Shown here: positions 29,184 to 30,632 of the stretch, piece by piece
How the letters are laid out: each line of letters starts with the position of its first letter
Numbering within the stretch: the first letter of the stretch is position 1
Virus record (IMG/VR): IMGVR_UViG_2534681940_000028
Origin: a virus
Lineage: Duplodnaviria; Heunggongvirae; Uroviricota; Caudoviricetes
DNA length: 46,844 nt
Direction: 5' to 3' (one strand)
Program-made: the position numbers and the translations under genes
The notes under the pieces: generated by a model
The model's input: the letters and a program-made list of their open reading frames with translations, nothing else
Told to the model about the DNA's origin: nothing
The model's database searches: none

Positions 29184-29738
29184 ATGCTTATTGGCTATGT
29201 CCGCGTATCAACAAATAACCAGAATACGGAATTACAGCGTAATGCGCTGGAGTGTGCAGGATGTGAGCTGATTTTTGAAGACAAGATAAGCGGTACAAAG
29301 TCCGACAGACCAGGACTGAAAAAGCTGCTCAGGACATTATCGGCAGGTGACACGCTGGTGGTCTGGAAACTGGACCGACTGGGGCGCAGTATGCGGCATC
29401 TTGTCGTGCTGGTGGAGGAGTTGCGCGAACGAGGCATCAACTTTCGTAGTCTGACGGATTCAATTGATACCAGTACCCCAATGGGGCGCTTTTTCTTTCA
29501 TGTGATGGGTGCCCTGGCTGAAATGGAGCGTGAACTGATTGTTGAACGAACAAAAGCTGGACTGGAAGCAGCTCGCGCACAGGGACGAATTGGTGGACGT
29601 CGTCCCAAACTTACACCAGAACAATGGGCGCAGGCCGGGCGATTAATTGCATCAGGCGTTCCTCGCCAAAAGGTGGCGATCATCTATGATGTTGGTATAT
29701 CGACACTGTATAAGAAGTTTCCGGTCGGAGATAAATGA
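29184..29738 (+). CDS. pin: serine recombinase, DNA invertase (Pin/Gin/Hin family)
   Basis: 184 aa from ATG 29184; N-terminus [18 protein letters not shown] with catalytic Ser; C-terminal HTH; next to invertible fibre segment. Confidence 0.85.
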
Positions 29739-30571
29739 AACCGTAGCACGTCGTATGCAAGAAGATCGTGCTGCGGTTTATGCTTATCACTTAAAGACTC
29801 AAAAATTAGGTGAGTAACGGACCGGGGACATAGCTCCTTTTTTCTTAATTCATCTGGTATTTTTTTTCCAAGATAAAGATTTGCTATTTCAGGTGGGGCT
29901 TCTCGACCTTCAAAACCATAGCGAGAACTTTGTGTTGCCTCAAAGTCCGGATCCTCGTCCCAGTATTTCATCGTAGGGAAATTTTCACGTGTTGATTTGA
30001 GCCATTTATCAGCAATGAAAACCCCTCGAACGATCCCCCTTACAGTAGCAAGAATGACTTCTGCTTGGCTGGCGCGAGAGACATTAATGCGCCAGCTAAA
30101 TCGAACCGCATCATAAAGCTCTGAATCCTTTGCACTTCTGTTAACGGAAATCATTAATGCTTTATGATGAAATGTTATGGTTTCGGGTTGATATGTTGCT
30201 ATCAACTCTTTGACATGCGCGGCGCCGAATTCATTGCTGCCAGCACCATTCATGATATTCGTTAACCCAGGGTAGGCATCAATAAGTGCTGCTTCGACTT
30301 CGTACGCCGTCTTTTCATCAGTCATTCCGTGTCGATGGATGACATGGATAACCTCAAGTCCTGCTAACCTTATTTCTCTAATTTGCTTTAGCTTGTTGCT
30401 CAGTAACTCGTCATCATCAGTCGCTGCCACTTCACCGCGCATATGGGCAAATACGCGGTTACCTTTGCCTTTCCCTACATAGAAGGTGCTTCCGTCCCTC
30501 GGATCAATCAATCGGTATACATACCAGCCAAGGTGTTCAATTACTCCAGAAGGAAACTCAGTAATATCCAT
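29684..30571 (-). CDS. GIY-YIG nuclease-family protein with uncharacterized ~200-aa C-terminal domain
   Basis: 295 aa from ATG 30571; N-terminus [28 protein letters not shown]...E fits GIY/YIG/Arg/Glu motifs; ORF-track start 30622 falls inside predicted promoter spacer. Confidence 0.55.
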
Positions 30572-30603
30572 TTTGCAATATCTATGAATTATTCGTGAGA
30601 CGT

Positions 30604-30632
30604 ATATTAATGAACATTGCAAGGGCTCACAA
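30604..30632 (-). promoter_or_regulatory. candidate sigma70 promoter for the GIY-YIG gene
   Basis: Minus strand TTGTGA, 17-nt spacer, TAATAT. Confidence 0.35.

Follow-up and report, generated by a model that had tools for sequence, protein, structure and literature searches.

A frameshifted copy of the Escherichia coli O157:H7 restriction nuclease CMoRE (PD-T4-3) as prophage cargo beside the pin invertase

The 46,844-nucleotide stretch of tailed-phage DNA recorded as IMG/VR entry IMGVR_UViG_2534681940_000028 (hereafter the window) carries, on its minus strand, an open reading frame (ORF) of 295 codons that was previously singled out from the sequence as an orphan gene for a GIY-YIG nuclease, and as a plausible uncharacterised anti-phage or restriction-like determinant. 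The analysis reported here indicates that this is almost certainly a frameshifted copy of the gene encoding CMoRE (PD-T4-3) of E. coli O157:H7, a restriction nuclease carried as prophage cargo immediately after pin. The original prediction was right in kind, in that a defence nuclease and its cargo position were both recognised correctly from raw sequence. The gene is neither an orphan nor uncharacterised, since PD-T4-3 has been known since 2022 and the O157:H7 protein has been tested and crystallised (PMC12923530; PDB 9U75 and 9U8D). Indeed, the family, the mechanism and the crystal structure of the O157:H7 protein are already known and published, and the present finding thus adds little new biology.

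Identity of the gene

The features of the gene as written in the window are as follows.

29684-30571, minus strand: ORF of 295 codons with ATG at 30571; codons 1-245 are authentic CMoRE/PD-T4-3 sequence and codons 246-295 are out-of-frame read-through
30272-30529, minus strand: GIY-YIG nuclease domain, approximately residues 15-100, with the GIYxY-YIG tyrosines Y17, Y19 and Y31 (from Pfam, PMC12923530 and invariant alignment columns)
30407-30418, minus strand: stretch of acidic residues, D52-D53-D54-E55, within the loop inserted between alpha2 and alpha3 (from alignment and PMC12923530)
29837-30223, minus strand: in-frame part of the C-terminal modification-sensing domain, approximately residues 117-245, including Y127
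29838-29843, minus strand: homopolymer of six A residues (A6; T6 on the plus strand), which is A7 in strain FRIK944
29799-29837, minus strand: remainder of the native frame, now out of frame, comprising the last 12 residues (a conserved tail) and the TGA stop at 29799-29801
30604-30632, minus strand: promoter-like hexamers TTGTGA-17-TAATAT, matching 8 of 12 consensus positions

The encoded protein begins MDITEFPSG, and a longer version of 312 codons could start at a TTG, reaching up to 30622. The ATG at 30571 was taken as the true start because residue 1 is where the alignments to the PADLOC and PHROG profiles and to the crystallised protein begin. Comparison with defence-system catalogues, proposed earlier as a check, placed the gene in a known family, the PADLOC model for PD-T4-3 (PDLC04031) being matched with E=1.3e-133. 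Residues 1-245 fall on positions 1-244 of the 256-position profile, the last 12 positions being unmatched because of the frameshift described below. A PHROG profile search returned phrog_5356 with E=4e-137, whereas a search of the NCBIfam profiles with the ORF protein gave no match. The PDB entry 9u75_A ("E. coli O157:H7 PD-T4-3"; also 9U8D) aligned over residues 1-246 with E=2.2e-163, and differs from the window protein within residues 1-245 by four substitutions (T51A, E55D, Q169K and N197H). Thus species, serotype and gene are shared with the studied CMoRE (WP_000355475.1), as are 241 of the first 245 residues, the three tyrosines, the acidic loop, Y127, the two-domain architecture and the single-gene organisation. 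The differences are the four substitutions and the one-nucleotide deletion, which exchanges the last 12 residues for 50 unrelated ones.

The profile search also bore out the predicted N-terminal GIY-YIG motif set, with Pfam family PF22945 (LEM-3_GIY-YIG) matching the N-terminus above its gathering score (E=2.8e-14). The motif residues can be read directly from the sequence (WYVYRLI, FYVGKG, R39 and E93), and Y17, Y19, Y31, R39, H43, E93 and N105 are invariant among 75 homologues; R39 and E93 would form the catalytic pair. All functional residues named in PMC12923530 are retained by the window protein; in the 75 homologues they vary little or not at all. The acidic loop reads DDDE as opposed to DDDD in the crystallised allele, and the core of the sensing domain, Y127 included, remains intact.

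At the DNA level, the O157:H7 strain FRIK944 is approximately 99.9% identical to the window across 37.9 kb. At the same locus beside pinE, the Prokaryotic Genome Annotation Pipeline (PGAP) calls a 257-residue LEM-3-like GIY-YIG protein, WP_000355484.1, which is found in many other E. coli as well. The DNA is identical apart from the length of the homopolymer (A7 and 257 residues in FRIK944, A6 and 295 residues in the window). More widely, the gene is present in 604 of 5426 complete E. coli genomes (∼11%).

Effect of the frameshift

DNA alignment revealed a single difference between the two copies of the gene, the window reading AAGAAAAAAGG where FRIK944 reads AAGAAAAAAAGG, i.e. A6 as opposed to A7. 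The reading frame shifts after K245, such that the native 12-residue end is lost and is replaced by ELCPRSVTH..., which continues for 50 codons to position 29684, within the 3' end of pin. The native protein has 257 residues, with its stop at window position 29799. This one-base deletion in an A-run accounts for the length of 295 residues, for the 55-nucleotide overlap with pin, all of which is out-of-frame read-through, and for part of the C-terminal domain of ∼200 residues that was formerly ascribed to the protein. The ORF at 29684-30571 is therefore real, but its length is not the native one, and the C-terminal domain was inflated by 50 residues of read-through. In retrospect, an ORF of such odd length that also ran into pin was a warning sign of a frameshift.

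The lost segment does not look like a flexible add-on. Among the 75 homologues, which extend down to ∼55% identity, G246 and Y253 of the native tail are invariant, and A247, P250 and K252 are conserved in at least 90%. In an AlphaFold2 model, residues 251-253 form a beta-strand with a predicted local distance difference test score of ∼87. The 9u75_A structure resolves 248 of its construct's 262 residues, with the missing density placed in the linker (PMC12923530), which is consistent with an ordered C-terminal tail. As the window is written, a complete sensing domain with its conserved tail is not encoded, whereas it would be if A6 were an assembly error. If real, the A6 allele is probably impaired.

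Origin of the A6 tract

The evidence on whether A6 arose in the source assembly or in the organism is mixed. On one side stands the rarity of the allele. An 81-nucleotide query spanning the tract matched 608 complete E. coli records, 604 of which differ from the window by one base, and the tract reads A7 wherever it was read directly among these records. The full 81-mer was matched exactly in one record only, a small replicon of strain CX15, in which PGAP labels the gene 'frameshifted'. Likewise, the exact 257-residue protein occurs on at least 1000 contigs and the exact 295-residue form on five, all of them Logan assemblies. On the same side is the company that the deletion keeps. Differences from FRIK944 over the shared 37.9 kb amount to three substitutions, a 16-bp indel and eight one-nucleotide deletions in the window, all eight of which lie in A/T runs; 7 of the 20 A/T runs of at least seven bases are shortened in the window. 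Six of the eight deletions break consecutive genes of a P4-like satellite that are intact in FRIK944, and two of these (34693 and 34736, 43 nucleotides apart) occur jointly in none of 309 complete genomes, a pattern typical of homopolymer under-calling. The abundance of one-nucleotide homopolymer deletions relative to FRIK944 makes an assembly error likely, and it seems reasonably probable that the A6 of the window is a homopolymer error of this kind.

Several observations weigh against reading the gene as CMoRE miswritten by its assembly. One of the homopolymer variants, at 36729, is common to 66 of the 309 genomes and is for this reason a true lineage polymorphism. An identical 295-residue ORF is present in five independent read-set assemblies with at least two flanking haplotypes, one A6 copy lying in another prophage on a clean contig of 25 kb, and A6 is found also in the 94%-identical CX15 allele. 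In addition, the O157:H7 protein that was tested (WP_000355475.1) differs from the window protein at four positions, the window copy lacks the native C-terminus, and no truncation experiment bearing on the last 12 residues is reported in PMC12923530. A real, rare slippage mutation is accordingly only somewhat less probable as the origin of A6.

Were the deletion real, the gene could be a decaying or attenuated CMoRE allele, in which the cores of both domains are intact and the 50-residue tail destabilises the sensing domain or the tetramer, with defence lost or weakened as a result. The recurrence of the allele in the five Logan assemblies with varied flanks, and in CX15, is in keeping with this idea, as are the retention of G246, P250 and Y253 down to ∼55% identity, the confident prediction of the tail as a strand, and the position of the unresolved residues of 9U75 in the linker, which would leave room for an ordered tail. 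Set against this are the seven further one-nucleotide homopolymer deletions, with five adjoining satellite genes broken and no substitutions nearby, the fact that the 34693/34736 pair is unique to the window among the 309 genomes, and the absence of the window's combination of variants from any complete RefSeq genome; an attenuated allele is on balance the less likely explanation. It is distinctly less probable still that the A7 tract, which lies in the conserved RKK codons, is a hot spot of recurrent slippage that genuinely inactivates or re-tunes the enzyme in some lineages, that of the window included, although such a site would offer a cheap route to shed a potentially toxic nuclease or to admit modified DNA. 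The notion that the tract acts as a slipped-strand switch for phase variation, in the manner of homopolymer tracts in certain restriction-modification systems of types I and III, draws on the appearance of A6 from A7 in at least three sequence backgrounds and on the location of the tract within the codons for a conserved R-K-K motif. However, the off allele is very rare (one of 607 full-length complete-genome records, and five contigs as opposed to at least 1000), and a population-level switch would give far more, so high-frequency phase variation is very unlikely. Seven bases are also short for a contingency tract, and the A-run requires no special explanation, since the AGA-AAA-AAA codons of the conserved RKK motif produce it.

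Published function and predicted mechanism

PD-T4-3 was discovered in 2022 in E. coli ECOR68 (Vassallo et al., as cited in PMC12923530), although the name 'PD-T4-3' is absent from the running text of Vassallo et al. (2022), where it presumably stands in figures or tables, and the text speaks only of 'a GIY-YIG nuclease'. It was renamed CMoRE by Liu et al. (Nat Commun 2026; PMC12923530), who studied the proteins of O157:H7 and APEC O1. In that work, the O157:H7 gene expressed from its native promoter reduced plating of T2, T4 and T6 by approximately five orders of magnitude without abortive infection, while T4 with unmodified cytosine evaded the system. The purified enzyme degraded DNA containing 5-hydroxymethylcytosine (5hmC) or glucosyl-5hmC and spared DNA containing cytosine or 5-methylcytosine. 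Cleavage occurred at CN11/N9G to leave 2-nucleotide 3' overhangs, and required two modified sites with no strict sequence requirement. CMoRE forms a tetramer in which two head-to-tail dimers pair up, and defence depends on oligomerisation. The GIYxY-YIG motif (Y17, Y19 and Y31) lies in the N-terminal domain. An inserted acidic loop serves the enzyme as an autoinhibiting 'safety catch', replacement of its four acidic residues with alanine (4A) giving a hyperactive and toxic enzyme. The C-terminal domain binds 5hm-dCTP, the 5-hydroxyl of which is bonded to Y127 through its main-chain oxygen (PMC12923530). A Capnocytophaga homologue with 48% identity is also a modification-dependent nuclease (PMC12366544), and deletion of the gene from the clinical isolate NILS69 rendered the strain sensitive to T-even-like phages (bioRxiv 10.1101/2024.12.20.629700).

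The mechanism proposed for the window protein is taken from that of a protein differing at 4 of its first 245 residues. On this basis, the C-terminal domain would bind 5-hydroxymethyl- or glucosyl-hydroxymethyl-cytosine in DNA, the head-to-tail dimer within the tetramer would read two modified cytosines 21 bp apart, and the N-terminal GIY-YIG domain would cleave at CN11/N9G to yield the 2-nucleotide 3' overhangs. The acidic loop, DDDE in this case, is expected to cover the active site and to keep the enzyme off ordinary host DNA, and T2, T4 and T6 would be restricted approximately 10^5-fold without abortive infection. In the copy as written, the loss of one A from A7 would leave residues 1-245 followed by a 50-residue nonsense tail in place of the conserved 12-residue C-terminus.

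The original prediction also credited the gene with its own sigma70-like promoter. The hexamers are present, but their match is unremarkable: a consensus promoter scan, for which they were sub-threshold, reported nothing on the CMoRE strand, and the count of sites in the region did not exceed that of shuffled sequence. PMC12923530 shows the native promoter of the O157:H7 gene to be active, without mapping its position.

Comparison with other nucleases

Modified-base readers fused to nucleases are also found among the PUA-superfamily type IV enzymes, such as VcaM4I/TspA15I, and in the YTH-like N-terminal domains of archaeal McrB. The nuclease of CMoRE is of the GIY-YIG type, whereas theirs are HNH or McrC. 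CMoRE's C-terminal domain has no structural homologue according to its authors (PMC12923530), and no sequence match to the PUA superfamily was found in any of the 75 family members. It may nevertheless be, though somewhat less likely than not, that this 'distinct-fold' sensing domain is a very divergent PUA-like (EVE/YTH/ASCH) reader, in which case CMoRE would belong to the large group of type IV enzymes that join a PUA domain to a nuclease.

A role outside defence, whether as a GIY-YIG homing endonuclease of the selfish kind or as a repair nuclease in housekeeping, is scarcely credible. The annotation 'putative homing nuclease' is attached to homologues (39-46% identity) from Serratia, Klebsiella and Pseudomonas jumbo phages, there is a weak PHROG match to a homing-endonuclease family (E=7e-4), and I-TevI and UvrC are the nearest GIY-YIG folds. 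Against this, the near-identical protein shows modification-dependent cleavage with no strict sequence requirement, unlike enzymes of the I-TevI type, and 10^5-fold protection from T-even phages, and deletion of the gene makes its native host sensitive to phage. The window offers no homing context, neither intron nor intein, and the C-terminal domain did not match known homing DNA-binding modules. Both the homing and the repair reading were rejected, as was that of a novel, uncharacterised defence gene, given that the family and the O157:H7 protein have already been studied.

Jumbo phages that infect Serratia, Pectobacterium, Pantoea, Klebsiella or Pseudomonas encode CMoRE homologues with 39-46% identity over residues 1-245 (e.g. 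Serratia phage Moabite, NC_048792.1, positions 6406-7134; Pseudomonas phage OBP; Klebsiella phage N1M2), which bear the annotation of homing or GIY-YIG endonuclease and might be used against competing phages whose cytosine is modified.

Prophage context

The elements that define the position of the gene are as follows.

29139-29738, plus strand: pin (pinE) invertase, with Resolvase and HTH_7 domains; PGAP start at 29184; convergent with CMoRE
30748-30813, plus strand: tRNA-Ser(CGA)-like 3' fragment of 66 nucleotides, upstream of CMoRE
32894-32940, plus strand: perfect 47-nucleotide repeat of the 3' end of thrW (tRNA-Thr); attR of the CMoRE prophage and left end of the P4-like satellite

The prophage combines lambdoid early and lysis genes with a terminase of the P27 family, a head of the HK97 type and a contractile tail whose baseplate is Mu-like, together with an e14-like module of ymfQ, tail-fibre, tfa and pin genes. 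It is integrated at thrW, and in FRIK944 the integrase adjoins the tRNA-Thr gene. Attachment sites were located by BLAST with the FRIK944 thrW sequence. Since the thrW repeat lies at 32894-32940, the prophage ends at approximately 32940 and is followed in tandem by the P4-like satellite; this repeat and a partial one of thrW at 45803-45828 delimit the array. The gene is convergent to pin, as had been noted, and lies in the right arm beyond it. It does not lie at the very end of the prophage. A consensus scan found no terminator between the convergent CMoRE and pin genes, and the inverted repeats retrieved as candidate crossover sites for Pin were no more than weak pairs of the sort that chance gives. 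The immediate neighbours are pin, the tRNA fragment and an AraC-family regulator gene, with no adjoining methylase, as befits a single-gene system.

The comparison drawn earlier with e14 held up well. In K-12, the order of genes is ymfQ-stfP-tfaP-tfaE-stfE-pinE-mcrA-attR, and DNA homology between e14 and the window breaks off exactly at the stop codon of pin, so the same position holds alternative type IV restriction cargo. McrA (EcoKMcrA) resembles CMoRE in its location right after pinE, where a related tail-fibre and invertase module has its right end, and in being a single-protein, modification-dependent type IV restriction enzyme. It differs in that it is an unrelated HNH nuclease, encoded on the same strand as pin, and targets methylated and hydroxymethylated cytosine rather than hydroxymethylated and glucosyl-hydroxymethylated cytosine. 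McrA in e14 and CMoRE in the window thus represent interchangeable type IV restriction cargo at one pin-adjacent prophage position.

In other E. coli, the cassette at 29736-30769 is found at the end of related prophages, beside pinE or an acyltransferase gene and with IS1 beyond. Its homology among strains stops inside the tRNA-like fragment, at 30769. We take this fragment to be serU-like, 64 of its 66 positions matching the serU sequence, and it may be the fossil attachment site of an ancestor that integrated at serU. ARAGORN detected no complete tRNA anywhere in the window. On a Logan contig from SRR7947352 (positions 1-11094), the identical frameshifted 295-residue ORF and pin stand beside a module encoding Collar, Phage_Wedge1 and a 399-residue Baseplate_J protein; since this tail module differs, the pin-CMoRE cassette evidently moves between unrelated myovirus tails.

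Two further pieces of AT-rich cargo lie between CMoRE and attR, namely the gene for the AraC-family regulator (31387-32139; HTH_AraC, E=1e-16) and a fragment of an IS3-family integrase core (32181-32546). The P4-like satellite carries genes for an integrase (33051-34283) and a primase-helicase (41790-44180), along with psu- and ogr-like genes, which are on the minus strand. Its integrase-proximal hotspot (34287-37557) holds an ABC-three-component system and an AAA ATPase, which are intact in FRIK944 (25289-28565 of its record) and are broken in the window by one-nucleotide A/T-run deletions at 34693, 34736, 34891, 35907, 36204 and 36729. These breaks suggest that the source assembly under-called homopolymers, and other odd ORFs in the window merit the same suspicion as the CMoRE ORF, in particular the broken ABC-three-component genes. 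The reverse situation is seen at 23490-23505, where 16 bp of the window are missing from FRIK944 (at approximately 14506). The baseplate assembly gene of FRIK944 is called 'frameshifted' by PGAP, from which it follows that the gene is intact in the window.
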